The notes: a model not told the origin generated them from the letters alone. Shown: positions 11,673 through 27,443, numbered from the stretch's first letter. The stretch is 27,443 nucleotides of DNA from a virus (UHGV-1837213); one strand, 5' to 3'. Translations and numbers: made by a program.

Positions 11673-12929
11673 CTATCGAGAACCACCAAGAATAACACGG
11701 TTTTTGACTGGATACCTACGATGTACTGGATAGCCCAATGCGTCTGCACTATGCTCAATGCCACCTGTCTTATCCATATCTCGTGTTCCAGGCTTGTAGA
11801 TGACTTTTTCCAGTGAATCAATCAAATGCTTGCACTTCGGATCGATATACAGCCGGATATCTCCAGATGCGGACATCAGCATTCGGTTAACAGCATTAAC
11901 ACGATCCGCAATTGGCGGGTGCTTTTTCGAATAATCGACACGTAAGAATCCCTTCTCTTTGAATATGTCTACGTCAGACTCCCCACGAGCATGTTGGCGA
12001 TAAGCACCTGCCGGATCTGGAAATACCGTTACCTGTGATTTCCAGCGCCAGAAGCGTCTCTCAAGCTCATCACAAACTTCTGCCGTGTTAGAGGAAAAGA
12101 GCACCAATTCATCAATTGCCCATAGCTCACCATTTGGCTGAGGTTGCAAAATTACGGAAGACATCGGGTCAATGTTGAAGTCCTGCCCTACCCATATAGG
12201 CAACCGAGGGTTGAACTGAAGCGGTTTTACATGCACGTTACGATCGAACGGGTAGTAAACGCGCCCGGACATGTTCTCAAAGCTCGCCAGGTACTCCTGA
12301 GCGAACGATTTCGGGTCCATATCGTTCTTAGCAGCTTCAATTTCCGCCGTAGGCACAAACGGAGAATCGGCAGTTACAAACTGCCAGCTCTTCCACTGTC
12401 CCTTTCTTTGCAGCTCTACGTTCTGGCCTATAGTCCACAGTTTGTGAAATTCCGAGAAGCCTTTTGGCGTACCAATGATCAGTGCACCGCCGCGTGTCGA
12501 TGAAAGAGTAGGTCGTAACACCTTGTACCAGGTGTCAGCCTTCATATCCTGAAATTCATCAAGCACTACAAAATGCAACGCTACGCCGCGCAGAGTGTCA
12601 GGCTTATCAGCACCTTTGAGGGCGATCTCCGAACCGTTCTTCAACACGATTGTCATCGTGGTGTCGTTCTTTTTCCTAACCCACTTACGAGGCAGAACTT
12701 CCTGTAGATCGTCCCACAAAATCTGGCGAGCCATCTGGTAAGTAGGAGCGACATACCAGACCCTTTGCTTTTTTTCCTTTGCCGCCGCACGAATAATAGT
12801 GGAGATCGACAACCGGGATTTTCCCCAGCGTCGACCAGCACAAACAACTTTAAATCGATGCGGAGACTGGAAGACTTTCATCTGTCCAGAATGCAGTTGC
12901 ACAAGACTGAGCGAGGACGGGATTGCCAT
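11673..12929 (-). CDS. Terminase large subunit, 418 aa
   Basis: N-terminal P-loop-like motif VVCAGRRWGKS; its start overlaps the small terminase stop (TGATG); followed by the portal gene. Confidence 0.85.
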   Translation of the reverse strand: MAIPSSLSLVQLHSGQMKVFQSPHRFKVVCAGRRWGKSRLSISTIIRAAAKEKKQRVWYVAPTYQMARQILWDDLQEVLPRKWVRKKNDTTMTIVLKNGSEIALKGADKPDTLRGVALHFVVLDEFQDMKADTWYKVLRPTLSSTRGGALIIGTPKGFSEFHKLWTIGQNVELQRKGQWKSWQFVTADSPFVPTAEIEAAKNDMDPKSFAQEYLASFENMSGRVYYPFDRNVHVKPLQFNPRLPIWVGQDFNIDPMSSVILQPQPNGELWAIDELVLFSSNTAEVCDELERRFWRWKSQVTVFPDPAGAYRQHARGESDVDIFKEKGFLRVDYSKKHPPIADRVNAVNRMLMSASGDIRLYIDPKCKHLIDSLEKVIYKPGTRDMDKTGGIEHSADALGYPVHRRYPVKNRVILGGSR

Positions 12930-13561
12930 TATTCGTCCTCCCCTTCACTTCCATCATCTGTCGCATCAAATTCGCTTAGAGCTTCTTCTTCCAACGTCTC
13001 AAGCAATTCGTCATCGATGATTTCAGGCTCGTCGTCTTCCTGACGTAATTTCGCCACCTGGGAAGGCGTAAGCTCACCAAATACCAGGTTCGGAATTTCT
13101 TCCTCGTCATTTTCCGCATGATCCATGCCCAATGCTTTGGACGAAACTTCAAAGCATTTTGCAAGGGTATTACTGGCTCTCTGTAAGCTCTTGAGAGAAT
13201 CCTCAATCGCCCCTAAAGGCTTACCCTCACGTTTGGCCGTAGTGACTTCGACCATCACCATCTGCCCCAACGCATACGCCCAGCCGTCATAACGTGTACG
13301 ACGTTCTTCTATCTTTTCCGCACGGGCTTTAGCGCGAAGCTCTGCGTCAGATTTAAGAGACTCACGAACCATCTTCCCAACAGAGTCCGCGCCTTTCTCT
13401 AATCCTCGCTTTTTGAAATGTCTGGAGAGTGTTTCACGACGAATGCCGTACTCTTCCTCCAGCTTTGAGAGTGTATATTCGCCTGACGTCCATTTGGCTT
13501 CAGCTTCGGCCCACTCCGCTGGTGTCAGGCGAGTTTTTACCTCGTCTTTTTCGACCGTCAT
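12929..13561 (-). CDS. Terminase small subunit (DNA-binding), 210 aa
   Basis: HTH-like N-terminal region and strongly acidic C-terminus; translationally coupled to the large terminase. Confidence 0.7.
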   Translation of the reverse strand: MTVEKDEVKTRLTPAEWAEAEAKWTSGEYTLSKLEEEYGIRRETLSRHFKKRGLEKGADSVGKMVRESLKSDAELRAKARAEKIEERRTRYDGWAYALGQMVMVEVTTAKREGKPLGAIEDSLKSLQRASNTLAKCFEVSSKALGMDHAENDEEEIPNLVFGELTPSQVAKLRQEDDEPEIIDDELLETLEEEALSEFDATDDGSEGEDE

Positions 13562-13631
13562 AGATCCCTCTAAAACACACAGAGCGCGTCCATGCGCTCT
13601 AAAACAACTTGTTTACTGCATCTGCTAACCA

Positions 13632-13662
13632 ACTTGTTTTCTGGGGTGTTTAATTAGGTCTG
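13632..13662 (-). promoter_or_regulatory. Copy of the conserved promoter/leader element upstream of the small terminase gene
   Basis: Minus-sense CCTAATTAAACACCCCAGAAAACAAGTTGGTT, similar to the elements upstream of the small acidic genes. Confidence 0.45.
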
Positions 13663-13673
13663 GCATGTCTTAC

Positions 13674-13736
13674 GAAGCCTGCTTCCGTATATATTTAATA
13701 AGTTACTTATTATTTATATATACAGAAGCAGGTCTT
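13674..13736. promoter_or_regulatory. Large nested inverted repeat upstream of the terminase genes
   Basis: Arms of about 18 bp (GCCTGCTTCCGTATATAT / ATATATACAGAAGCAGGT) flank a central palindrome ATAAGTTACTTAT. Confidence 0.5.
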
Positions 13737-13756: not shown

Positions 13757-14023
13757 TTACATCACCAGTAACTTCGCTTTGGCTCGACCTAAAGTAGTTA
13801 ACCCAAGAGTTCGGCGGTGATAGCGATTGTCACTGCGTTGGCGCGTATGCCCTTTCTCCACCAGCCCCTTTTTTATCAGAGCGCGAATTGAGAACTGGAT
13901 ACTTTGCTTGGTTGTCTTGTACGGCAAAACTTCAAGCAATTCGTCCAGGTCAAGTAGATGACCTCGCTCATAACCGAGATTGAGCGTTTTGATGATGTCC
14001 TTTTGTTTATCGGTTAACGTCAT
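13757..14023 (-). CDS. Small basic protein, possible winged-helix DNA-binding protein, 88 aa
   Basis: Last gene of the coupled operon. Basic C-terminus with HTH-like segment KQSIQFSIRALIKKGLVEKG. Confidence 0.5.
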   Translation of the reverse strand: MTLTDKQKDIIKTLNLGYERGHLLDLDELLEVLPYKTTKQSIQFSIRALIKKGLVEKGHTRQRSDNRYHRRTLGLTTLGRAKAKLLVM

Positions 14024-14032
14024 GGCAAATCC

Positions 14033-14923
14033 TTATGCCGGTAAAGCAATTTCTAACGGTTTATCCAAAGGTTGTTTGTCGAATGCCAGCAGTGGCAGCG
14101 TGTCAGGCAGTCGACGACCAAAGTCAGGGTTTCGATACACACCATACAACGGAGACGTAAAGCTCAGGTTGTGAATGTCCTTGAGCAGCTTCACAATGCT
14201 GGCCTCGTCCACCAGACTGTCGGCAATGTCCTGAATCGTCGTGCCACGATTCCGCCCAGCTTTTGCCAGGGAACTGTTCTTGTGGTAGTCCGCCACCAGA
14301 TCACGCAGTGCACGGCGACGACGAGACTCGCTCATAGCGAACAACTCTTTGACGATCGCCTCGTTATCACCCGGGTCGGAGCGGAAATGGCGCTGGAACA
14401 CACGCAGTGCACTTTCATAGCTCTTCGGTCGCTCAGGGCGGATGAACTTAAACCCTGCTTTCATGGCGAAGGGATTGTATTTGCTCATCGATGACTGGAT
14501 CTCAATGATTGGCCGGTCATGCATCCTGCTAACCAGGTTAATCATTCGATAAGAGACGCCTACGCCACGATACTGAGTATCCACAACTGAGCGACTGATC
14601 ACCGCAAAGTTGTTATTCACGTACCGGCCCCAGTACTGGTTAGCCACGGTGGTATTGGTGGTTGGTTTCAACTTAGGAAACATGCGATGGCGAGGTGCCA
14701 GCAGAAGTTTCGGGTAAGCCATAACCACGACGCCCACCAGACGGTCATCAAGTTCGCAGCGATAGTAAGTTGGCGCGAAAGGTTTGCCGTCTGTTTTGTA
14801 GTGAAGCGACTTAAGAGCGTGCCAGTCCTCTACAGTTCCCTTTGTGACAGTCATTCGCTCCAGAAAGTCCAGATGACGCGGAAACTCTTCAGGGCGGTAG
14901 CGTTTGATGATGATATCTGCCAT
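14033..14923 (-). CDS. GNAT-like acyltransferase-fold protein (ORF track 14033..14932; ATG at 14923)
   Basis: Motif VDTQYRGVGVSYRMIN resembles GNAT motif A (Q/R-x-x-G-x-G/A) preceded by a hydrophobic strand VVVMAY. Start coupled to the upstream stop, with AGGTGA RBS. Fold assignment is by eye only. Confidence 0.55.
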   Translation of the reverse strand: MADIIIKRYRPEEFPRHLDFLERMTVTKGTVEDWHALKSLHYKTDGKPFAPTYYRCELDDRLVGVVVMAYPKLLLAPRHRMFPKLKPTTNTTVANQYWGRYVNNNFAVISRSVVDTQYRGVGVSYRMINLVSRMHDRPIIEIQSSMSKYNPFAMKAGFKFIRPERPKSYESALRVFQRHFRSDPGDNEAIVKELFAMSESRRRRALRDLVADYHKNSSLAKAGRNRGTTIQDIADSLVDEASIVKLLKDIHNLSFTSPLYGVYRNPDFGRRLPDTLPLLAFDKQPLDKPLEIALPA

Positions 14924-14928
14924 GTCGA

Positions 14929-15183
14929 TCACCTGCGCTCGATATTGGCATTGATGAAATCCAGGCGAAGAGACTCCATCGCCCCTACCATGACATACGG
15001 GCGCCCGCCGTTATGCCAGCAATCAAGAACACTACCGTCGTTGTTGATCATCAACAGCGCCAGGCTCTGGCTTTTTCCTTCTCTGGCGTGCTGAAGTGCT
15101 TCTTCCAGCAGGCGGATGACTTCCACGTTGTTGTTATCAGTCTCTTTCGATGGCTTCAGCTCTACGATCTTCAAATCAGGCAT
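14929..15183 (-). CDS. Hypothetical small protein, 84 aa
   Basis: ORF overlapping both neighbours within the operon. Confidence 0.5.
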   Translation of the reverse strand: MPDLKIVELKPSKETDNNNVEVIRLLEEALQHAREGKSQSLALLMINNDGSVLDCWHNGGRPYVMVGAMESLRLDFINANIERR

Positions 15184-15814
15184 ATTCCACCTTCACGCGT
15201 TCTTTGTAGTGCTTGGTGATCTGCATATCCGGGCGCAGCGCGTTCTTCAGGTCTTCGTGAGTCGTCGCCACCATTACCGTCGCACCAACCTTTCGAGCGG
15301 CACGCTGGAGGTTAGACGCCACAACCTGAGCGGTTACACGGTCTAGAACAGCGCCGAACTCGTCAGCAGCCCATACTTTAGCGCCTGACTCAATCAGTTT
15401 GGCAATCTTGAGACGATATTTCTGGCCGTCTGACATTTCAGAAGGCTTGCGAACAAACAGATATGCATCGTTCAGACCAGCCATAGATAACAACCCAAGC
15501 GCATCACTGGTCGTTTTGCCCAACTGATCGATGACGTTAACCTCATTATCGAAGGTAAAATCATCGATGGAGGCTACAGACAGCCCTTCATCCTTCATCT
15601 GTCGTTGCAACTCGCGCAGCACAACGGATTTGCCGGAACCGGATTGGCCGGTGATGTACACCACATCGCCCTGCTTCACTTCCAGCTCCAGATTGTCGTA
15701 AAGCGTCCACTCTTTTTCGTCCAGGCCAAGCCCGAACGACTCAGCGATTTCCAACGTGCGCGTGGTTTTATTTACGCGTGTCTGAAACGATACGTTGATG
15801 ATGTATTTGCTCAT
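15176..15814 (-). CDS. Soluble ABC-type ATPase, 212 aa
   Basis: Walker A GQSGSGKS, signature-like SDGQKYRL, Walker B VWAADEF, H-loop TTHED. No transmembrane domain. Start overlaps the upstream stop (ATGA). Confidence 0.8.
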   Translation of the reverse strand: MSKYIINVSFQTRVNKTTRTLEIAESFGLGLDEKEWTLYDNLELEVKQGDVVYITGQSGSGKSVVLRELQRQMKDEGLSVASIDDFTFDNEVNVIDQLGKTTSDALGLLSMAGLNDAYLFVRKPSEMSDGQKYRLKIAKLIESGAKVWAADEFGAVLDRVTAQVVASNLQRAARKVGATVMVATTHEDLKNALRPDMQITKHYKERVKVEYA

Positions 15815-16479
15815 GCAGCCATCTCCCCGGAAGAGATCTTCTCCGCATATGCCACAAATGCGTCTACCCCGCTTTCTCCCGTCATTTCTTCCATATGGGC
15901 AAGCAAATCACCAACAACAATGGCAGAGCCAGCAGGGAGCGTTTTAAAGCCCAATACGTCGACAACACGTACTTCTTCCGCTGCAACTTCACGACTGATC
16001 TCGGTGTGTTCATCCTTCTGTCGTTTAGTTTCTTCGCCAAGATCGATAACTAGCGAGTCGGTGTCCATTTCTTCTGTCATACTGCCAACGAGAACATTCA
16101 ACTCACGCTCTTCGAAGCCGAAAACCTCGATATCGTCCAGAACAAGCGACTCAAGCTCTTTCTGTAGCTTAATTGCATCGTAATCAATGCTGGCAAGTCG
16201 GTTATCTTCAAGGCGCTTTGCACGTACCTCGTCATCACTCAGATCATCACGAACAATAACCGGTACGCGCTCAAGTCCAGCAAAAATTGCAGCCTCACGG
16301 CGGCCGTGGCCAGTAATAATTACGTCGTTCTTATCGACCGTAATTGGCTGGTCAAATCCGCGCTTTTTAATGGCTGCGGCCAGATCTCTGATCTGCTGTT
16401 CATCATGCTTTTTGGCATTCATCTCATAGGGAATAAGATCTGCCGGGTCGCGATATACGATTTCAAACTTTTTGGTCAT
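15811..16479 (-). CDS. ParB-like nuclease domain protein, paralog 2 (ORF track 15811..16512; ATG at 16479)
   Basis: ParB/sulfiredoxin-type motif ITGHGRREAA; acidic C-terminal half. The start overlaps the upstream stop (TAATG) and is preceded by an AAGGAG RBS. Confidence 0.75.
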   Translation of the reverse strand: MTKKFEIVYRDPADLIPYEMNAKKHDEQQIRDLAAAIKKRGFDQPITVDKNDVIITGHGRREAAIFAGLERVPVIVRDDLSDDEVRAKRLEDNRLASIDYDAIKLQKELESLVLDDIEVFGFEERELNVLVGSMTEEMDTDSLVIDLGEETKRQKDEHTEISREVAAEEVRVVDVLGFKTLPAGSAIVVGDLLAHMEEMTGESGVDAFVAYAEKISSGEMAA

Positions 16480-17159
16480 TACATACGCTCCTTGTAGTAG
16501 TCGACCAGCCACACCAGAGCCTCACCAGCGTTCTCCATTTCATTACCGGTGTTAATAGCCTGCTCTTTGATGATGTTTTTTATGGTTTCTGCAACACGAT
16601 CTGACGCATCGAAAGTTACTTTGAAGCGCATGGTCTGATGTTCCGCACCCACACGTTCGGTTTTCTCTCGTTTGTCGGTATCGACAGGCTCATCACTACC
16701 ACGAGACAACGCCTCCAGTGCTTCAAGGTCGATTGCCGCCTCTTTTGCTAAAACCATCGAGATTTCGTCGTCATACGGAGCGATTTCAGACAGTTGATAG
16801 TCAAGTTCTGACTGAATTTCTTCAATGAAGCGTTGCAATGCGATTTGGTCGTCTTCACCGTATCGCTCGTTGTCCACCAGTGACATCTGTTTAGCTACGA
16901 CATCGCTAATTTTGCCCACAGAAAGCACCGGAACCGTTGAAATTCCTTGCTCAATAGCAGCACGCCAGCGATGTTCACCGCCGAGGATTTCAAAAAATCC
17001 ATCTTCAAGTTCACGAGCCAAAATTGGCTTAAAAAAGCCCAATTTTTCGATAGAACCTTTCAGTTTTTCAAAATTCTGCGCACCAACCGAATTGGTGTTC
17101 CAGGTATTCGGGCGAAGGTTGGCAACATCAACCTGCAAAATCGTGATTTTTACATCCAT
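16479..17159 (-). CDS. ParB-like nuclease domain protein, paralog 1 (ORF track 16479..17177)
   Basis: Motifs LRPNTWNTN and ILGGEHRWRAA are typical of ParB N-terminal domains. First gene of the operon, divergent from the helicase gene. Confidence 0.75.
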   Translation of the reverse strand: MDVKITILQVDVANLRPNTWNTNSVGAQNFEKLKGSIEKLGFFKPILARELEDGFFEILGGEHRWRAAIEQGISTVPVLSVGKISDVVAKQMSLVDNERYGEDDQIALQRFIEEIQSELDYQLSEIAPYDDEISMVLAKEAAIDLEALEALSRGSDEPVDTDKREKTERVGAEHQTMRFKVTFDASDRVAETIKNIIKEQAINTGNEMENAGEALVWLVDYYKERM

Positions 17160-17177
17160 TTTATTGCTACAATCCAC

Positions 17178-18803: not shown

Positions 18804-19082
18804 ATGAGTGAAAAGAAAACAACTTACTGTCAGGTAGCATTGTCTGATAAGGCCAATGACAAACTTGGAAAGTTTCAAGTGAAACTAAAAGAAAAAAATA
18901 TCAAAATGTCTAAGGCTGAAGTCATAAATACCATTCTGGAACAATTGACAATGGCCGACTTTGACAAGGTTATATCTTCTGTCGGGGCTTCCGCTAAGAC
19001 TCGTGAGAAAATCATGCGTATCTATGAGAACTCTAATATGACAAAGGAAGATCTCGAAACGCTATTAAGCAGATTAAAATAA
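18804..19082 (+). CDS. Hypothetical small protein, 92 aa
   Basis: ORF starting 2 nt after the helicase stop; Lys-rich. Confidence 0.55.
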   Translation: MSEKKTTYCQVALSDKANDKLGKFQVKLKEKNIKMSKAEVINTILEQLTMADFDKVISSVGASAKTREKIMRIYENSNMTKEDLETLLSRLK

Positions 19083-19577: not shown

Positions 19578-20102
19578 ATGACAACCAAAGATATTACCTA
19601 CGGTATCCAAGCTGAACTCTGGCCGCGAGATTACACTAACGTTGAAAAACTACTGATGTTCTGGCGCAGAGAACAAATTCCTGTAAGGGTCACTCTCGAA
19701 GATGGCCAGGCGTTTTGCATGTACGTTTATGGCCTCATGCCATCTCGTAACAAAGTTGACCTTTGCCCAGCCCCTTTTGACAAAGAAAATCGTATAAGGC
19801 TCCCACTTGAACGCATTAGTACAATTGAATCAGGTGTGGTTGACAGTATCGCTCACGATTTCAAAGGTCGACTAACAGTTCACCCTGATTATGTCGATAA
19901 TCGGCCATCACGCCGCGATTTTTTTGCAATTTGCAACCAAGCCTACAAAGCAAACAAATCTATAAGGGTGTACATGGCGGATGGCCGTGAAATTGAGGGG
20001 GTGTCAGCAGGCGCAGATGCTTGTCAGGTTACACTACGTGTCGAGAACGGTAGAAAAATAGTTGTTTTGTTCGATTGGGTTGAACGAATTTTGCCTTTTT
20101 GA
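19578..20102 (+). CDS. Hypothetical protein (ORF track 19500..20102; start probably ATG at 19578)
   Basis: The longer ORF overlaps the lipoprotein gene by 74 nt. The ATG at 19578 follows the lipoprotein stop. Confidence 0.5.
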   Translation: MTTKDITYGIQAELWPRDYTNVEKLLMFWRREQIPVRVTLEDGQAFCMYVYGLMPSRNKVDLCPAPFDKENRIRLPLERISTIESGVVDSIAHDFKGRLTVHPDYVDNRPSRRDFFAICNQAYKANKSIRVYMADGREIEGVSAGADACQVTLRVENGRKIVVLFDWVERILPF

Positions 20103-22342: not shown

Positions 22343-22456
22343 GCCGTTTCCCGAAAAAATCCTGGCCGTTTCCCGTCGGCTCATGAATACGTTCCTCGCC
22401 GTTTCTGAAAATTTCCCTGCGGCAGCTGGTGGCTATAGAGAAAGGGCCGTTTCTGG
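22343..22456 (+). repeat. Iteron-like direct repeats (4 copies of GCCGTTTC(C/T)(C/T)G)
   Basis: Copies start near 22343, 22365, 22398 and 22446, all in the same orientation. Confidence 0.6.
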
Positions 22457-22468
22457 CCCTCTTCTCAG

Positions 22469-22951
22469 TTACACGCCATCAAGGATGTGGATGCGGTTGC
22501 TTGCGTATACATTCAGCATAAAGTTAGCGCAAAACAGTTTCCATGTATCAACGCCAGCGGTATACGTAATGTTTTTGCATTTAATCGCATTGTTGGCGAT
22601 CCGCATCCCCTGCGATACTGCTTCATCGTCGGAAAATTTGAACGACGATTGAGTTTTAATCCAGACAGAAATCTGCGTAGCGAACTCAATCAGCTTGGAC
22701 TGGCAGAATCGCCCGGAGCGCACCGGAAAGACGAACGTTCCGAATCCAGAATTTACCACATATGCTTTCTCAAATACCCGCGAGTAACGACGATTGCCAA
22801 TGATGTCGCGTGCAATAATGCATTTTTCTTGTGCTGACAGTTCTACCGTCTCATTGTCGCGCCATGCACCAAGTACTCGTTTTTCAATGTCAGAGAACGT
22901 TACAGCGATATTGCCATGTGCGGGTGCGTTTACAGTAGCGATAAAATTCAT
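22469..22951 (-). CDS. Hypothetical protein, 160 aa
   Basis: AAGGA RBS 8 nt upstream of the ATG; preceded by the conserved promoter/leader element. Confidence 0.6.
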   Translation of the reverse strand: MNFIATVNAPAHGNIAVTFSDIEKRVLGAWRDNETVELSAQEKCIIARDIIGNRRYSRVFEKAYVVNSGFGTFVFPVRSGRFCQSKLIEFATQISVWIKTQSSFKFSDDEAVSQGMRIANNAIKCKNITYTAGVDTWKLFCANFMLNVYASNRIHILDGV

Positions 22952-22972
22952 GATTAATTCCTTATCGTAAAT

Positions 22973-23005
22973 AACAAATTGTTTTCTTGTTGGTGTTAAT
23001 TATCG
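22973..23005 (-). promoter_or_regulatory. Conserved promoter/leader element, copy A
   Basis: Minus-sense CGATAATTAACACCAACAAGAAAACAATTTGTT with a -10-like GATAAT, and TTGACG about 15-16 nt upstream. Confidence 0.55.
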
Positions 23006-23124
23006 TTGTACGAATAAGGCGTCAAAGTGGAAAGTTGCGGTAGCCGGACGGGAACAGGTGGGTTTGTCGGTTGCCTGGAGGTAAGAGGTTGGTGTTTTTA
23101 GCCTGCGGGAAACAGGATGGTCAT

Positions 23125-23152
23125 TTAAGGCCACCAGCATTGGTGGCCTTAA
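23125..23152 (-). terminator. Hairpin terminator containing a Chi octamer (minus orientation)
   Basis: TTAAGGCCACCA-GCAT-TGGTGGCCTTAA, 3 nt after the stop of the 93-aa gene; contains CCACCAGC. Confidence 0.5.
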
Positions 23153-23155
23153 TCT

Positions 23156-23437
23156 TTAGTGGAGCAGACCGATGTCGATGGTATCCCCTGAATCATCCAC
23201 ACGGATCATCAGCATGGCAAAGGCGTTTAGTGGATAGCTTGCGTGCCATTCAGGGAAGCGGTCATCTCGCATGAAGTCGGCAATGTCGTAAACGCATCCC
23301 TCAAAGTGGAAGAATCGCGTGCTTACCTGCTCGTCATAATCCACATGATCCATTTCTTGCTGTTCTGTTTCCGGCAAGTCCAGCCATGATTCAAGAAATA
23401 CATTTTGTGCTTTAGGGGTAATGGTGAAATCAGTCAT
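23156..23437 (-). CDS. Small strongly acidic protein, 93 aa (ORF track 23156..23569; ATG at 23437)
   Basis: The conserved element lies inside the longer ORF. The ATG at 23437 is preceded by TGAGGA. About 19 Asp/Glu against 5 Lys/Arg. Confidence 0.6.
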   Translation of the reverse strand: MTDFTITPKAQNVFLESWLDLPETEQQEMDHVDYDEQVSTRFFHFEGCVYDIADFMRDDRFPEWHASYPLNAFAMLMIRVDDSGDTIDIGLLH

Positions 23438-23457
23438 GAGCATATCCTCACTGCGTA

Positions 23458-23489
23458 AACATGTTGTTTTCTTGTTGGTGTAATTATCG
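23458..23489 (-). promoter_or_regulatory. Conserved promoter/leader element, copy B
   Basis: Minus-sense CGATAATTACACCAACAAGAAAACAACATGTT. Confidence 0.55.
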
Positions 23490-23595
23490 CAGTGTAGATA
23501 AGGCATAAAAGAAGTTAATACAGGCTGAATACACAAGAAAGGTTCTGGAAGTTGATAGCCAGGTTTCAAACTAACCTTCGGTTATTAAAAGTCAT

Positions 23596-23623
23596 TTAAG
23601 ACCACCAATGCTGGTGGCCTTAA
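23596..23623 (-). terminator. Hairpin terminator containing a Chi octamer (plus orientation)
   Basis: TTAAGACCACCA-ATGC-TGGTGGCCTTAA. Same stem as the 23125 copy but with the loop inverted; contains GCTGGTGG. Confidence 0.5.
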
Positions 23624-23626
23624 TAA

Positions 23627-23770
23627 TTATCGCCCGATTACGCTAAGGATCTTTTCCTCAACTGATTTGTTGTTGCGACTAAACTGCCTTGCGTATCTGA
23701 TGACAGAAGAGGCGTTTTGCTTTCTGACCATCTCGGCTCTTTCCTTCAGGCGTTTCTTGAAATCGCCCAT
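23627..23770 (-). CDS. Possible small basic protein, 47 aa (below the ORF-track size cutoff)
   Basis: ATG 2 nt after the stop of the 124-aa gene. Peptide MGDFKKRLKERAEMVRKQNASSVIRYARQFSRNNKSVEEKILSVIGR. Stop immediately before the hairpin at 23596. Weak RBS. Confidence 0.3.
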   Translation of the reverse strand: MGDFKKRLKERAEMVRKQNASSVIRYARQFSRNNKSVEEKILSVIGR

Positions 23771-23772
23771 AT

Positions 23773-24147
23773 TTACCACCAGGCGCAGAAGGTCAGTCTG
23801 TTATTGTGAAAGTCGTGGTTCTTAATCAGATCTTCCACAAGCTCTTTCAACTCCCCCACATCATGCCAGTAACCTTCATCGTACTCCTGACTGCCGAAGA
23901 AAAAACCTTCCCGGGTAGGCAAGTACTCTTCGCAATTACTTTCGTTTATGTGCATCAAATGAGCCTTCAGAAAACAAATGTCATTCATCGTTAATTCTAA
24001 AAGCTCACAATTTTCGACTTCACCTACGTTGCGCTCCATCCACCCAACGAGCGCATTGAACTTACGGAAGTAAGCAACCTGCTTTCTGGATGCCTCGTTA
24101 TTCAGATCGTTTTTAGGCTGTGTCTCGATATAGATATCAAGTCCCAT
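23773..24147 (-). CDS. Small strongly acidic protein, 124 aa (ORF track 23773..24189; ATG at 24147)
   Basis: AAGGAA RBS 7 nt upstream of the ATG at 24147; acidic composition. Confidence 0.6.
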   Translation of the reverse strand: MGLDIYIETQPKNDLNNEASRKQVAYFRKFNALVGWMERNVGEVENCELLELTMNDICFLKAHLMHINESNCEEYLPTREGFFFGSQEYDEGYWHDVGELKELVEDLIKNHDFHNNRLTFCAWW

Positions 24148-24204
24148 GATGGTTTCCTTATTAAGTTGCTTCAGTGAAATCATTTTCACAAATCAGATAA
24201 GGCA

Positions 24205-24225
24205 GAAAACAAATTGTTATCTGGC
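24205..24225. promoter_or_regulatory. Degenerate or inverted copy of the conserved element core (copy C)
   Basis: AGAAAACAAATTGTTATCTGG, containing the palindrome AACAA-A-TTGTT. Confidence 0.35.
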
Positions 24226-24231
24226 TTAATA

Positions 24232-24256
24232 AAATGGCGCGGTTTACGCGCCATTT
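24232..24256 (-). terminator. Rho-independent terminator after the 131-aa gene
   Basis: Stem AAATGGCGCG/CGCGCCATTT followed on the minus strand by TTTTATT. Confidence 0.6.
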
Positions 24257-24264
24257 AAAGAGGA

Positions 24265-24660
24265 TTAAGCGAATACGCTTTCAGGGATTAAGGTGTCGGC
24301 AGGAATGCCAGAGGTAATGCGCAGGCCGTACTGACCAATCCAGGTAGTGTTGGTATTCAGGTTGGAGGCGAATACGGTGTTAACCATATTCATCATGGTT
24401 TCAAACACCTCTTCATCAACCTGGCGGAAGTAGCTCTCGATTTTCAGCAGCAGCGGGTCAGTTGCATCGAGAATGGACTGGTATTGAGTCGCGTACTCGC
24501 CGTCGGAGTCATCACCTTTACGCACGATCGTACTGGCCTGTACTTCGGCGCCAGTTTCGGTGTTGTACGTAACAACGGTGATTTTTGCCACATTCTTACC
24601 TTCGGCGGTTTCAGAGGCATAGTAAACATCAACTGTCAGTTTTTCGCGTTTAATGGTCAT
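24265..24660 (-). CDS. Hypothetical acidic protein, 131 aa (ORF track 24265..24726; ATG at 24660)
   Basis: GGAGA RBS upstream of the ATG at 24660. A sigma70-like promoter TTGTAA-17-TAGAAT overlaps the palindrome GTAAGTATGTACTTAC (about 24704-24719). Confidence 0.6.
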   Translation of the reverse strand: MTIKREKLTVDVYYASETAEGKNVAKITVVTYNTETGAEVQASTIVRKGDDSDGEYATQYQSILDATDPLLLKIESYFRQVDEEVFETMMNMVNTVFASNLNTNTTWIGQYGLRITSGIPADTLIPESVFA

Positions 24661-24723
24661 TTCACTCTCCGTAGTGTATTGGTTATTTTTATATTCTATG
24701 ATCGTAAGTATGTACTTACAATA

Positions 24724-24752
24724 CAAAAAAGCCCCGTAAGGATGGCGGGGCT
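24724..24752 (-). terminator. Rho-independent terminator after the 103-aa gene
   Basis: Stem AGCCCCG/CGGGGCT followed on the minus strand by TTTTTTGTAT. Confidence 0.7.
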
Positions 24753-24786
24753 GTCGTACTGTCGACTAATTACCACTTGCACATTA

Positions 24787-25098
24787 TCAGGCTATTGCCA
24801 TCACTGATGCTCTCTGAATCTCTTGCTGGGCCACGCGGTTAACTTCCATCAAGGCCAGTTCGAGCTGATGTTCCGGCCACATTCTTTGAAATGCCACCCA
24901 GCCTTTTCCACGCTGGCGACGAACATTCATTACATAACGAGTAAAGGTGTTTTTATCGAAAGACACCGCTGTTTCACGGAACAGACGAATAGAGGTTCCA
25001 TTGGCAACGATGTCCAGCAAAGTTAATTGAGCAACCAGCGCAGGCTTCTCTTTTCTCTTCTGGTCTTTGTCCAGACCAAGAACCAATGATTTTTTCAT
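24787..25098 (-). CDS. Small basic protein, 103 aa (ORF track 24787..25128; ATG at 25098)
   Basis: GGAG RBS 5 nt upstream of the ATG at 25098. Basic composition, possibly nucleic-acid binding. Confidence 0.55.
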   Translation of the reverse strand: MKKSLVLGLDKDQKRKEKPALVAQLTLLDIVANGTSIRLFRETAVSFDKNTFTRYVMNVRRQRGKGWVAFQRMWPEHQLELALMEVNRVAQQEIQRASVMAIA

Positions 25099-25110
25099 CA
25101 CAACTCCGTA

Positions 25111-25144
25111 AACAACTTGTTTTCTCAATGGCGTAAATAATACC
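25111..25144 (-). promoter_or_regulatory. Conserved promoter/leader element, copy D
   Basis: Minus-sense TGGTATTATTTACGCCATTGAGAAAACAAGTTGTT; extended -10-like TGGTATTAT with TTGTAG upstream. Confidence 0.5.
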
Positions 25145-25224
25145 AGTAAGAAAACGGCTACAAAGCATAATGATCAGGTGCATGATCGATATGCAGGTTC
25201 TTCCCTGCGGCTATAGAGAAATTA

Positions 25225-25241
25225 AGCCAGCAATGCTGGCT
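25225..25241 (-). terminator. Hairpin terminator after the 109-aa gene
   Basis: Stem AGCCAGC/GCTGGCT followed on the minus strand by TAATTTCTCT. Confidence 0.45.
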
Positions 25242-25251
25242 TTGGTTGGGA

Positions 25252-25581
25252 TTACGCGAATACCTCAAGAAACTCCTGAACGTCCCAATGCTGGACGAGG
25301 TGAAGATAGACCTTAGAAATCACGTCATTTTCGCTATCGCATGTGAAGTAGTACTTCTGGCTGCGGTTGTATGTGTCCACACAAAATTCGCTCATATCCA
25401 TAAAGTCAGCATCTTCACCCATGTCGCAAATCATCAAAGCAGGTGCATCATCACGAGTCATCAGCTCAAGCACCCACCGCGAATTGATCAGAGTGGAAGA
25501 CCAACCTTCCAGCTCATAGAACTGGTCAAACTCTTTTTGAGTCAATTTCTTGATTTGGTTGATGTCGATATGTGCAAACAT
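25252..25581 (-). CDS. Small strongly acidic protein, 109 aa (ORF track 25252..25602; ATG at 25581)
   Basis: AAGGA RBS 7 nt upstream of the ATG at 25581. About 21 Asp/Glu against 8 Lys/Arg. Shares an RDD...ADFM-like segment with the 93-aa protein. Confidence 0.6.
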   Translation of the reverse strand: MFAHIDINQIKKLTQKEFDQFYELEGWSSTLINSRWVLELMTRDDAPALMICDMGEDADFMDMSEFCVDTYNRSQKYYFTCDSENDVISKVYLHLVQHWDVQEFLEVFA

Positions 25582-25594
25582 AAAGCAATCCTTA

Positions 25595-25626
25595 AACAAC
25601 ATGTTTTCTTGATGGTGTTATTATCG
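25595..25626 (-). promoter_or_regulatory. Conserved promoter/leader element, copy E
   Basis: Minus-sense CGATAATAACACCATCAAGAAAACATGTTGTT. Confidence 0.55.
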
Positions 25627-25944
25627 CAATAACGCACAGGCGAAAAAGGATTTTATTCCGGTGAATGTGGTTTTGGCAGTGAGTTTTCAGGTTCAGTACC
25701 GAGAACACTTTTTACATTATTCTGATTTAGTGGCCGAAGGTGGCTGGTGGGCAGAATAATCATCTCCCCGAAAACCTACTGAAATCGATTGTGACCCGTT
25801 GGCTGTCTGGCACAATTACGCTGTAGCTGGGCATTCAGAGGGAATCCAGCGGTAAGTAAGTTCGCCTGCACGTGAGCGCCTCTCTTCTTCCCGCACATTA
25901 CAGGTGGGTAGCCGCAACTCTCCCTCACGCTATACCGGTACGCC

Positions 25945-26076
25945 GCCGTTCCTGAACCGGCATCGAGCCTTTTCCCGAAACCCACACAGGCAACTCGACC
26001 GTTTCCCTGAAAACCTCCAGCCGTTCCCCGAAGGCAACCCAGCCGTTTCTGTAGCGGGATGCAACCTTTTCCCTGT
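25945..26076 (+). repeat. Iteron-like direct repeats (6 copies) with about 22-bp periodicity
   Basis: Copies of (G)CCGTT(T)CC(C)GAA-like sequence starting near 25945, 25967, 25997, 26020, 26042 and 26065. Confidence 0.6.
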
Positions 26077-26130
26077 ATGGACCGAAGGCTGACCGTAGGG
26101 GTGTTACGGGGGATAAAATCAGGAGTTGAA

Positions 26131-26161
26131 TAAATACGAAAAAGGAGGCGACACCCCTCCT
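26131..26161 (-). terminator. Putative terminator at the end of the skewed ORF-free region
   Basis: Minus-sense AGGAGG-GGTGTCG-CCTCCT followed by TTTTTCGTATTT. Confidence 0.45.
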
Positions 26162-26990
26162 TCCCTCCCCACTTATACATACCTGGCTTCTTCGCTATAC
26201 ATGTTGTGTTTTATCTGTCTCAACCTCTCTATAGGCGTTAATGCTCACTCCTTCCAGAATGTTCTATACGGCGACTATTTCTGTTGGTGAATTGGGCGTG
26301 TTGTTCTCTCTGTCGGTGTAAATGGTTTCGTTCGTTTTGCGGTGGTTCTTCTATGGGGTGTTCTCGTCGTTTTGGTGATTGTTCTTCTCCGTGTATGGAG
26401 TAATGGCAGGTGGGCGATTGCTTTCGTTATTGTGTTTGAGTTGTTTGTCTGGAGTGTGTGAAAGGCTTTTGTAGTTATTCGTGTATTGGGTAATGGCGTT
26501 TCCCGTGATTGTTATGTTTCGTGTCTTTTGGGATTGAGAGAAACCTTGCGGTTACAGGCTTCGTTGGGGTTTCAGCGGTTCAGGTGTTTCTTCGCTGTTT
26601 GGGTAATGGCGTGTCGTGGGTATCGCGCGTATGAATGTTTTCGGATTGCCTGTGAAAGTTAGGTTGGTTGTCCGGTAGCCTGGGGAGAAGAGGTGGGTCT
26701 TTTCGGTAGCCTGCCATAAAGAGGTTGGTTGTTTTGGGGAATGGCATGTGTGTTATTTAGTTGTTTTGTTATGCCTGAAAATAAGTTGTTTATATGGTTG
26801 TGTAACGCAACGGGAACGATTTTGAGCGTGTGTTTTTGTTGGTAGTGTGTTGGGTCGTCTGTGGTGAAAATTGGACGCTGTGGCGCTGTCTGCTGCGTAG
26901 AATTACGGGTATAAGCAGTGATGTGTGAAAACGTCAATTTTTTAGACCAAATCGGATGAAAGCGTTGATGTTTCGTTGATCTGTTATTCA
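26162..26990 (-). ncRNA. Candidate long untranslated transcript or structural DNA element; ORF-free with extreme strand skew (G+T rich on plus, C+A rich on minus)
   Basis: No convincing ORF on either strand. One sampled 60-nt stretch was about three quarters G+T. Bounded by a copy of the conserved element (about 26991-27011) and a terminator-like hairpin. Internal short repeats such as GGGTAATGGCG and CGGTAGCCTG. Transcription is inferred, not shown. Confidence 0.3.
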
Positions 26991-27011
26991 GTTGTTTTCT
27001 TGATTGTATAA
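26991..27011 (-). promoter_or_regulatory. Conserved promoter/leader element, copy G
   Basis: Minus-sense TTATACAATCAAGAAAACAAC at the upstream edge of the skewed region. Confidence 0.4.
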
Positions 27012-27143
27012 ACAACTATAACTTATTGATATTTAAGGATGTGATTGCGGGTATGGAAGGGGAGTAGTGGCGATCAACGGATTCTTATAGAAAAGAATCA
27101 AATTGTGACCGCCATTATCAACGGTTTGAATCTGTTTGCAGAT

Positions 27144-27443
27144 TTACCAGTTCCAGCACTCAAGCCCTTCAACGACCGGCGCACCACAATCAAAATGTAC
27201 AGAGTCAAAGCCTACATCAAGTACTTTCTGAATGTTAGCAATCGCGCCTTCGGATATACCATATCGACGCAAGTCGTCTTTCCAGACATCATCCTGTAAC
27301 CCGGCGTGGACAATACAACCGCCGTCAATTTGCGAAACCCAATCCAGCTCATTGCTTGCGATCATGAATCGGCGAGCATCTTCCTCTGATGTATGAGATG
27401 AGCTGATCAATGCCACCTGGTAGGCTTGGGTAATGTTCAACAT
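27144..27443 (-). CDS. Hypothetical acidic protein, 99 aa; start codon at the last bases of the window
   Basis: ORF with ATG at 27443-27441; its upstream region is outside the window, so the start cannot be verified. Confidence 0.45.
   Translation of the reverse strand: MLNITQAYQVALISSSHTSEEDARRFMIASNELDWVSQIDGGCIVHAGLQDDVWKDDLRRYGISEGAIANIQKVLDVGFDSVHFDCGAPVVEGLECWNW

Follow-up and report, generated by a model that had tools for sequence, protein, structure and literature searches.

A 13-bp dyad at scattered promoters of SSU5-like phage-plasmids as a candidate operator of a clade-specific regulon

The C1 repressor of phage P1 reportedly controls many scattered operons by means of short operators overlapping the promoters, including those of the replicative helicase gene and of regulators of late functions. 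The C1 operators are asymmetric 17-mers, ATTGCTCTAATAAATTT, and some promoters possess two of them. In IncP plasmids, KorA and its partner KorB bind palindromic operators located at varied positions of many promoters and act cooperatively, coordinating replication, maintenance and transfer (PMC2665229 for KorA). The viral DNA stretch UHGV-1837213, which comprises 27,443 nucleotides and is referred to below as the window, contains a repeated 13-bp dyad, AAACAAnTTGTTT, situated next to predicted promoters. By function, this element looks most like the operators of P1 C1 or of KorA/KorB, that is, like a phage or plasmid operator regulon. We put at about even the chance that the dyads are operators of a phage-plasmid repressor flanking sigma-70-type promoters without a -35 box, and that they make up a clade-specific regulon. 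The searchable literature contains no description of operators, promoters or a lysogeny regulator of SSU5-like phages, nor of any link between these phages and FljA, the Salmonella phase-variation repressor.

Like the P1 system, the putative regulon belongs to a plasmid prophage, has short operators dispersed over many promoters, includes a helicase gene and shows some paired sites. Unlike P1, it is built on a 13-bp dyad core, no C1 homolog was seen, and terS appears to be controlled directly, whereas P1 uses an Lpa-like activator. With KorA/KorB it shares repeated palindromes that occupy differing promoter positions in one replicon, but the sequences and the proteins differ, and the IncP replicons are conjugative plasmids, not phages. 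As with the operators of lambdoid CI and Cro, the dyads flank or overlap core promoters, and the fixed spacing of the pairs suggests cooperativity; in contrast to the single immunity region of lambdoid phages, the candidate operators are spread over about 105 kb, and there is no clade-wide CI-like gene.

Judging by its sequence, the window is an SSU5-like phage-plasmid. Its bases 22400-27443 are 98% identical to Escherichia phage Cyrano, which is pLF82, the SSU5-like phage-plasmid of E. coli LF82, and its minus strand corresponds to the Cyrano plus strand. The gene order runs from the tail and head genes to terS (12929-13561), an operon of ParB, ABC and winged-helix genes, the uvsW operon in divergent orientation and a minus-strand block of small genes. 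The comparison included Cyrano, SSU5, a divergent Klebsiella plasmid (NZ_CP065827.1) and a Moellerella plasmid (NZ_CP129024.1), with a wider sample of 80 IMG/VR viral loci centred on FljA-like genes (1.42 Mb). The expected dyad counts for the window, Cyrano and SSU5 were obtained from shuffled sequence. The consensus was derived from an alignment of 24 downstream-type sites of Cyrano and SSU5, and the position weight matrix (PWM) from 200 distinct sites. Lysogen expression was taken, as values per gene, from the published RNA sequencing of LF82 (PMC9928086, table S1).

With no more than one mismatch, the dyad occurs eight times in the window against 0.15 expected, at 13602-13614, 13627-13639, 22972-22984, 23457-23469, 24207-24219, 25110-25122, 25594-25606 and 26779-26791. 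At the same threshold there are 18 sites in Cyrano (0.77 expected), 20 in SSU5 (0.3 expected), 21 in the divergent Klebsiella plasmid and 598 in the IMG/VR loci, which retain the dyad even where the identity of the FljA-like protein falls to 55%. An initial annotation of the window had listed seven copies of a promoter or leader element, near 13632, 22973, 23458, 24205, 25111, 25595 and 26991. Every one of them was found at its place, while two dyads had been overlooked, namely the second terS site at 13602 and the site at 26779 within a region free of open reading frames (ORFs). The motif proved to be genome-wide and clade-wide and is not limited to 22973-27011. The palindrome AACAA-N-TTGTT, named as the core in that annotation, is present, and the full unit is the 13-bp dyad. 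The originally proposed pattern TTGTTTTCTTGNTGGTGT, allowing three mismatches on the plus strand, gave five matches (22979, 23464, 25117, 25601 and 26992; 0.11 expected). The copy near 26991 consists of the left half, CAAGAAAACAAC, and its right half is absent.

One-sided extension of the core commonly gives the 9-mer AGAAAACAA, which behaves as the strong half-site of the dyad. Eight exact copies are present in the window (0.43 expected), a count which takes in two matches in coding sequences, near 18814 and 23969, and leaves out the copy at 25601, where the sequence is AGAAAACAT. The same 9-mer is over-represented elsewhere too (21 against 1.5, 15 against 0.9 and 16 against 0.57 expected). 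Sites with at most one mismatch are nearly all intergenic and lie 5′ of genes. They are found at orthologous promoters across genomes, including those of terS, parA, the dnaB-like helicase, cobT, nrdB, tciA, the DUF4942 methyltransferase and small genes. The persistence of the element at the same promoters of Cyrano, SSU5 and the Klebsiella plasmid, in spite of diverging flanks, bears out its original description as gene-proximal regulatory DNA rather than a mobile repeat, and it does stand 5′ of terS and of the compositionally skewed ORF-free region. A search of the whole window with Rfam gathering scores matched no family.

In the consensus of the downstream-type sites, ttt..GCCTTTT-N9-(TGn)GATAAT-aACACCAAcAAGA-AAACAAnTTGTTT-Aa, the dyad follows a -10-like hexamer. 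Such a hexamer, defined by A at position 2, T at position 6 and a match of at least 4/6 to TATAAT, was recognised in 16 of the 24 sites, mostly as GATAAT or TATTAT, and in 13 of these 16 it precedes the dyad by 13-14 nt. TGn stands directly 5′ of the hexamer in 10 of the 24. The sites do not belong to the canonical -35 class: a -35 match (at least 4/6, spacing 16-18 bp) was found in only four of the 24, and a consensus sigma-70 scan called none of the cassettes as a promoter. The core promoter is probably of the host sigma-70 type; its -10 box is good and in many cases extended, and a proper -35 box is lacking. Assuming that transcription starts about 7 nt after the hexamer, the downstream dyads would occupy approximately +8 to +20, and the 5′ end of the mRNA would be the CA-rich string ACCAAcAAGAAAACAA. 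Between dyad and start codon there are 11-42 nt overall and 11-40 nt in the window, instead of the 20-40 nt assigned to the element earlier; this variable distance indicates that the promoter, and not the ribosome-binding site, fixes the position of the dyad. Conservation 3′ of the -10 box does exceed that of an ordinary promoter. Hairpin terminators separate the transcription units, the units themselves being mono- or bicistronic.

In a second class of sites the dyad is reversed and lies just 5′ of the GCCTTTT block, AAACAAnTTGTTT-TCT-GCCTTTT-N9-TGnGAAAAT, at about -44 to -32. This upstream type, with the opposite orientation, accounts for five sites of Cyrano and SSU5 and for the majority of those in the Klebsiella lineage. 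The copy near 24205, formerly regarded as degenerate and inverted, is actually a full dyad located upstream, not downstream, of the -10 box of its own promoter; with its flanks (24204-24222) it lies between this box and the terminator of the upstream gene. Because of this placement between the terminator of the previous gene and the -10 box, upstream dyads are not transcribed from their own promoter. Cyrano gene 101, just past the window end, has both positions occupied at one promoter. The centres of paired upstream and downstream dyads are exactly 51 bp apart in 38 related loci, and the centres of the two terS dyads are exactly 25 bp apart in 44 related loci.

The Klebsiella plasmid and the window share 72-90% identity in major structural proteins, 59% in terS and 36% in the FljA-like protein. 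The dyad of this plasmid is unchanged and its copies are mostly of the upstream type; this prevalence of the untranscribed position argues for recognition as DNA. The Klebsiella leader retains the left half, AAGAAAACAAC, without the right half. The comparison thus points to two separable parts, a dyad on either side of the core promoter and an A/C-rich initial transcribed region. The Moellerella relative, whose terL is 80% identical, keeps the promoter backbone and the CA-rich leader, but a search of it revealed no dyads at all, which makes the dyad a feature of the Escherichia-Salmonella-Klebsiella-Yersinia branch.

The possibility that the dyad acts as an RNA hairpin was rejected. Folding of the leader RNA was no better than that of shuffled sequences (z from -0.02 to +0.9, with no significant structure), variants with G10 changed to A are common and uncompensated, and a single compensated case was seen. 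Recognition at the DNA level appears more likely, given the exact complementarity of the halves, the occurrence on either side of the -10 box and in either orientation, the untranscribed copies, the fixed spacing of pairs, the lack of RNA structure and the practical absence of compensation. The leader RNA may have a separate or additional role.

For the first genes of 15 motif units, the median expression in lysogens was about 7.5 fragments per kilobase per million (FPKM), against a phage-plasmid background median of 9.8. The motif-less uvsW, CYRAN_117 and CYRAN_114 genes are expressed in lysogens, and the uvsW operon, two of whose products are candidate regulators, is served by a promoter with a plain TATAAT box and no motif. 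Repression seems to be the simpler reading, because the -10 boxes are good and often extended and because the dyad is found only downstream of the start at most promoters of the E. coli/Salmonella branch; its chief competitor is an activator that would take the place of the missing -35 box.

A complete cassette of about 85 bp would have the structure [AAACAAnTTGTTT-TCT]-GCCTTTT-N9-(TGn)GATAAT-aACACCAAcAAGA-[AAACAAnTTGTTT]-ribosome-binding site-ATG. A dimeric regulator encoded by the phage-plasmid would recognise the dyad as double-stranded DNA, and the protein bound upstream (about -44 to -32), downstream (about +8 to +20) or in both positions would block the binding or the escape of RNA polymerase. 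During plasmid replication of the element, approximately 20 transcription units would be kept shut in this way, comprising small early genes, the replication helicase, cobT, nrdB, tciA, the methyltransferase and the terS late operon. All of them would be turned on at once when the regulator is released. Of the three roles offered by the initial annotation, the operator fits best because of the two-fold symmetric core, the two alternative positions flanking the promoter and the fixed-spacing pairs. The promoter of a phage polymerase or sigma factor is unsupported, and a target in the 5′ untranslated region is possible for the CA-rich leader only, as it cannot account for the untranscribed upstream copies.

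The most interesting candidate binder is a protein of the FljA family. Salmonella FljA is said to act on the fliC 5′ leader. FljA-like regulators prevent the translation of fliC mRNA (PMC2652032), and it is this translational block through a leader that makes the FljA-family candidate attractive. The product of 19578-20102 matches PF03614 over the full length (E 2.5e-84, 281.7 bits, cut-off 24), and its Klebsiella and Moellerella homologs are also above the cut-off. Comparison of the protein with solved structures by sequence gave no match. The gene is conserved in Cyrano and SSU5, has a lysogen expression of log2 7-8 and was found in 835 PLSDB plasmids, 345 of them from Klebsiella and one of them Y. 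pestis pMT1; this FljA relative is a core gene of SSU5-like phage-plasmids. Homology of the element to the fliC leader (AUCAAGUUGUAA, verified Salmonella sequence) was rejected, as the PWM scores were at chance; the best match in that leader is CATCAAGTTGTAA, with 0.09-0.2 such matches per leader expected by chance.

The other candidates fared differently. The 88-aa MarR/PadR-like winged-helix protein, 78% conserved in the Klebsiella lineage, is a doubtful binder, its recognition helix TTKxSxQFSxRAL being the same in Moellerella and in about 45 distant dyad-less loci. The 92-aa protein was rejected as a ribbon-helix-helix repressor; it has no Pfam or PDB support, the AlphaFold2 model has a mean predicted local distance difference test score of 57, and the putative DNA-contact strand varies among lineages sharing the dyad. 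CYRAN_45, named a putative repressor, was discarded, since it is not in SSU5, which has the dyad. The phylogenetic profile of the four genomes is compatible with the FljA-like protein and with CYRAN_37 and CYRAN_62, the latter two encoded outside the window. Among the proteins encoded in the window, the FljA-family protein would best fit the expression data, and the winged-helix protein would best fit DNA binding.

Several observations weigh against a DNA-binding repressor. The half-sites are unequal, the left half with its AGA flank being clearly more conserved than the right one, about three quarters of the flanked sites are oriented with transcription, and the left half occurs alone in leaders; all this points toward recognition of RNA, or at least of a single strand, which the asymmetry would suit. 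No clearly DNA-binding protein fits the phylogenetic profile. The candidate expressed in lysogens, the FljA-like protein, has an RNA-type fold according to modelling, and the winged-helix protein, with a recognition helix unchanged in dyad-less relatives, is near background in lysogens. The lack of a -35 box together with silence in lysogens would fit dependence on an activator as well, and the promoter positions throughout are inferred from -10 boxes. Besides, parA is expressed in lysogens in spite of its site (50 FPKM, rising to log2 10). Its promoter at Cyrano 29259, outside the window, carries a perfect dyad; a GATAAT box 3′ of the dyad may belong to a second promoter that bypasses control.

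A regulon acting at the RNA level, which we consider rather unlikely, would have the FljA-family tandem-Sm protein bind the transcript start A-C-C-A-A-c-A-A-G-A-A-A-A-C-A-A-n-U-U-G-U-U-U, block translation and destabilise the mRNAs, as FljA does with fliC. The full-length PF03614 match, the presence of the gene in Cyrano and SSU5 and its expression in lysogens agree with this, as do the leaders, which are unstructured and A/C-rich, with an A-rich left half that is better kept and stands alone in Klebsiella and Moellerella. Klebsiella is a non-motile genus, so that an FljA-like gene on 345 of its plasmids suggests a target within the element rather than host flagellin, and the most diverged homolog (23% identity, Moellerella) coincides with the loss of the dyad. 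As in the FljA/fliC system, a PF03614 member is encoded, the target is situated 3′ of the transcription start and 5′ of the ribosome-binding site, and the target mRNA is scarce where the regulator is present. Unlike that system, where FljA has one known target, about 20 would exist here, the similarity of the targets is not significant, and the upstream dyads have no fliC counterpart. These upstream dyads are conserved at fixed spacing although not transcribed from their own promoter; binding to a single strand leaves unexplained the six-for-six complementarity of the halves, which form no stable hairpin and show no covariation; the position is fixed relative to the -10 box and variable relative to the start codon; and the FljA-like protein is just 36% identical where the dyad is unchanged. 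T4 RegA is a small protein that represses a large number of early mRNAs by way of a short A/U-rich motif in their leaders, with the selected consensus AAAAUUGUUAUGUAA. The similarity is superficial. RegA sites overlap the start codon whereas the sites described here are tied to the promoter; RegA lacks an Sm fold, and a DNA dyad is absent from T4. It is similarly doubtful that the FljA-family tandem-Sm protein is a master regulator of some 20 units through AGAAAACAA(nTTGTTT), in the RNA leader and possibly also in DNA, so that lysogeny would be maintained by an Hfq-like fold instead of a helix-turn-helix and Salmonella FljA would be a domesticated copy.

It is improbable, in our estimation, that the promoters depend on a lytic-phase activator which binds the dyad and replaces the -35 box, lysogen silence then reflecting absence of the activator; the 88-aa winged-helix protein or CYRAN_37 might play this part. 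The scarcity of -35 matches (four of 24) and the failure of the sigma-70 scan to call any cassette speak for such an activator, the upstream site is centred near -38, a classical class II position, and the MarR/PadR-like gene directly 5′ of terS is expressed in lysogens as poorly as the target units. In most E. coli/Salmonella cassettes, however, the only dyad is at +8 to +20, a position from which a bound protein should impede transcription, many of the extended -10 promoters should fire unaided, and the winged-helix recognition helix is unchanged in dyad-less relatives. Promoters of a phage-specific RNA polymerase or sigma factor, a host-factor site and a mobile repeat are together very improbable. 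The conserved stretch from -12 to +20 is comparable in length to T7-type promoters, but the -10 box is sigma-70-like and the core occurs on both sides of it and in both orientations; the annotation of Cyrano, with its 126 features, lists neither an RNA polymerase gene nor a sigma gene, and no dedicated profile search was made. The motif is absent from the Moellerella relative, in which the host family order and the promoter backbone are shared, and a mobile repeat is at odds with copies standing at orthologous promoters and not at variable insertion points. Repressor binding to the dyad as DNA remains the reading we prefer.

The SSU5-like phage-plasmids, which include Y. pestis pMT1 and S. Typhi pHCM2, rank with the most frequent large plasmids found in Escherichia, Klebsiella, Salmonella, Enterobacter and Yersinia, and their cargo comprises resistance and virulence genes. 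The dyad would map the controlled units of these elements, about 20 per genome with the late operon included, and offers an experimental handle and a clade signature. If it is true that the Sm-fold FljA relative binds the dyad, the origin of the Salmonella phase-variation repressor would be explained. The cassettes of the window and the candidate trans factors are listed in Table 1.

Table 1. Dyad cassettes, the terS leader hairpin and genes of candidate regulators in the window
Feature	Coordinates	Strand	Details
Cassette of 160-aa gene (ATG 22951)	22972..23004	-	GATAAT 22999-23004, leader AACACCAACAAGA, dyad 22972-22984 AAACAATTTGTTA, one mismatch
Cassette of 93-aa gene (ATG 23437)	23457..23488	-	TGC + GATAAT 23483-23488, leader ACACCAACAAGA, dyad 23457-23469 AAACAACATGTTT
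Upstream-type cassette of 124-aa gene (ATG 24147)	24182..24222	-	dyad with both AGA/TCT flanks 24204-24222, then GCCTTATCTGATT, extended -10 TGTGAAAAT 24182-24190
Cassette of 103-aa gene (ATG 25098)	25110..25145	-	TGG + TATTAT 25137-25142, leader ACGCCATTGAGA, perfect dyad 25110-25122
Cassette of 109-aa gene (ATG 25581)	25594..25628	-	TGC + GATAAT 25620-25625, leader AACACCATCAAGA, dyad 25594-25606 AAACATGTTGTTT
Half cassette heading the ORF-free CA-rich unit	26989..27012	-	TTTATACAATCAAGAAAACAAC; left half-site AGAAAACAA only, without right half
Extra dyad within the ORF-free unit	26779..26791	.	AAACAACTTATTT on minus strand, one mismatch; kept in Cyrano (94605) and SSU5 (90740)
Control region of terS (late operon)	13602..13657	-	CTAATT -10-like box 13652-13657, leader AAACACCCCAGA, dyads 13627-13639 and 13602-13614
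Hairpin AGAGCGCatggaCGCGCTCT + GTGTGTTTT	13572..13600	-	between the dyads and the terS ribosome-binding site
FljA-family protein, candidate trans factor	19578..20102	+	PF03614; two modelled tandem Sm/Hfq-like domains; motif-less uvsW operon, lysogen-expressed
88-aa MarR/PadR-like winged-helix protein, candidate trans factor	13757..14023	-	directly upstream of terS control region
92-aa protein (CYRAN_117 homolog), candidate trans factor	18804..19082	+	perhaps ribbon-helix-helix-like, by eye only; strongly lysogen-expressed

The ORF-free unit on the minus strand (26139-27012, about 860 nt) begins with the half-site cassette and ends with a strong terminator (26139-26165). Its sense strand is composed of 38% A and 30% C, and it contains one further dyad and GCCATTACCC repeats. 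AACAA occurs there 11.6 times per kb, compared with 6.1 +/- 2.5 in composition-matched shuffles. A 166-bp stretch of the unit is 80% identical to SSU5 DNA, whereas the adjoining genes are not. A search of the region for tandem repeats found none, and an enrichment of ARN repeats was rejected, as there was no excess over composition. The unit could be a long non-coding RNA, possibly a regulator decoy, or an origin; if the FljA-family protein were the master regulator, this CA-rich non-coding unit could be its decoy. Short direct repeats, ACGCCGCCGTTCCTGAACCGG...CCTTTTCCC and TCCCCGAAAACCT-like, are located nearby on the plus strand, at 25760-26100, in a C-rich stretch where Cyrano has the doubtful ORF CYRAN_104; these repeats look like iterons.

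The hairpin of the terS leader (13572-13600) has a G+C-rich stem followed by a T run, and a hairpin with a different stem sequence is found at the same place in SSU5 and in the Klebsiella relative. By its features, it looks like a leader terminator or attenuator, and the late operon may therefore also be under antitermination or attenuation. Between the winged-helix gene and the terS promoter there is an inverted repeat (13675-13735) with 18-bp arms, ATATACGGAAGCAGGCTT and AGACCTGCTTCTGTATAT, and an AT-rich centre, for which two matches were found against 0.00 expected. Similar sequences stand 5′ of terS in SSU5, Klebsiella and Moellerella, the last having related copies at three places. This repeat could serve in packaging as a signal, in late transcription as a promoter element, or as a terminator acting in both directions.

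The 131-aa gene (24265-24660, minus strand) is the sole small gene of the block with a canonical sigma-70 promoter (TTGTAA-17-TAGAAT, within 24662-24790), and it has no dyad; its Cyrano homolog is nonetheless near background in lysogens. The 99-aa product of 27144-27443 (minus strand) matches DUF5983 (E 6.9e-11). The promoter of this gene lies outside the window, and in Cyrano and SSU5 it carries upstream and downstream dyads 51 bp apart, which makes the gene the most heavily guarded unit. Downstream of the DUF5983 gene, Cyrano possesses an additional gene expressed in lysogens, CYRAN_102, that is missing from the window.

The module comprising ParB, a ParB-like nuclease, an ABC ATPase, a 299-aa protein, the 88-aa winged-helix protein, terS and terL, with the divergent UvsW helicase (window 13757-17177; loci L364-L443), is conserved on viral contigs of about 100-118 kb. 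The G+C content of these contigs ranges from 33% to 64%, which places the SSU5-like phages in a far broader group. Its members of high G+C content have ACTTGGG/CCCAAGT inverted repeats 5′ of terS in place of the dyads.

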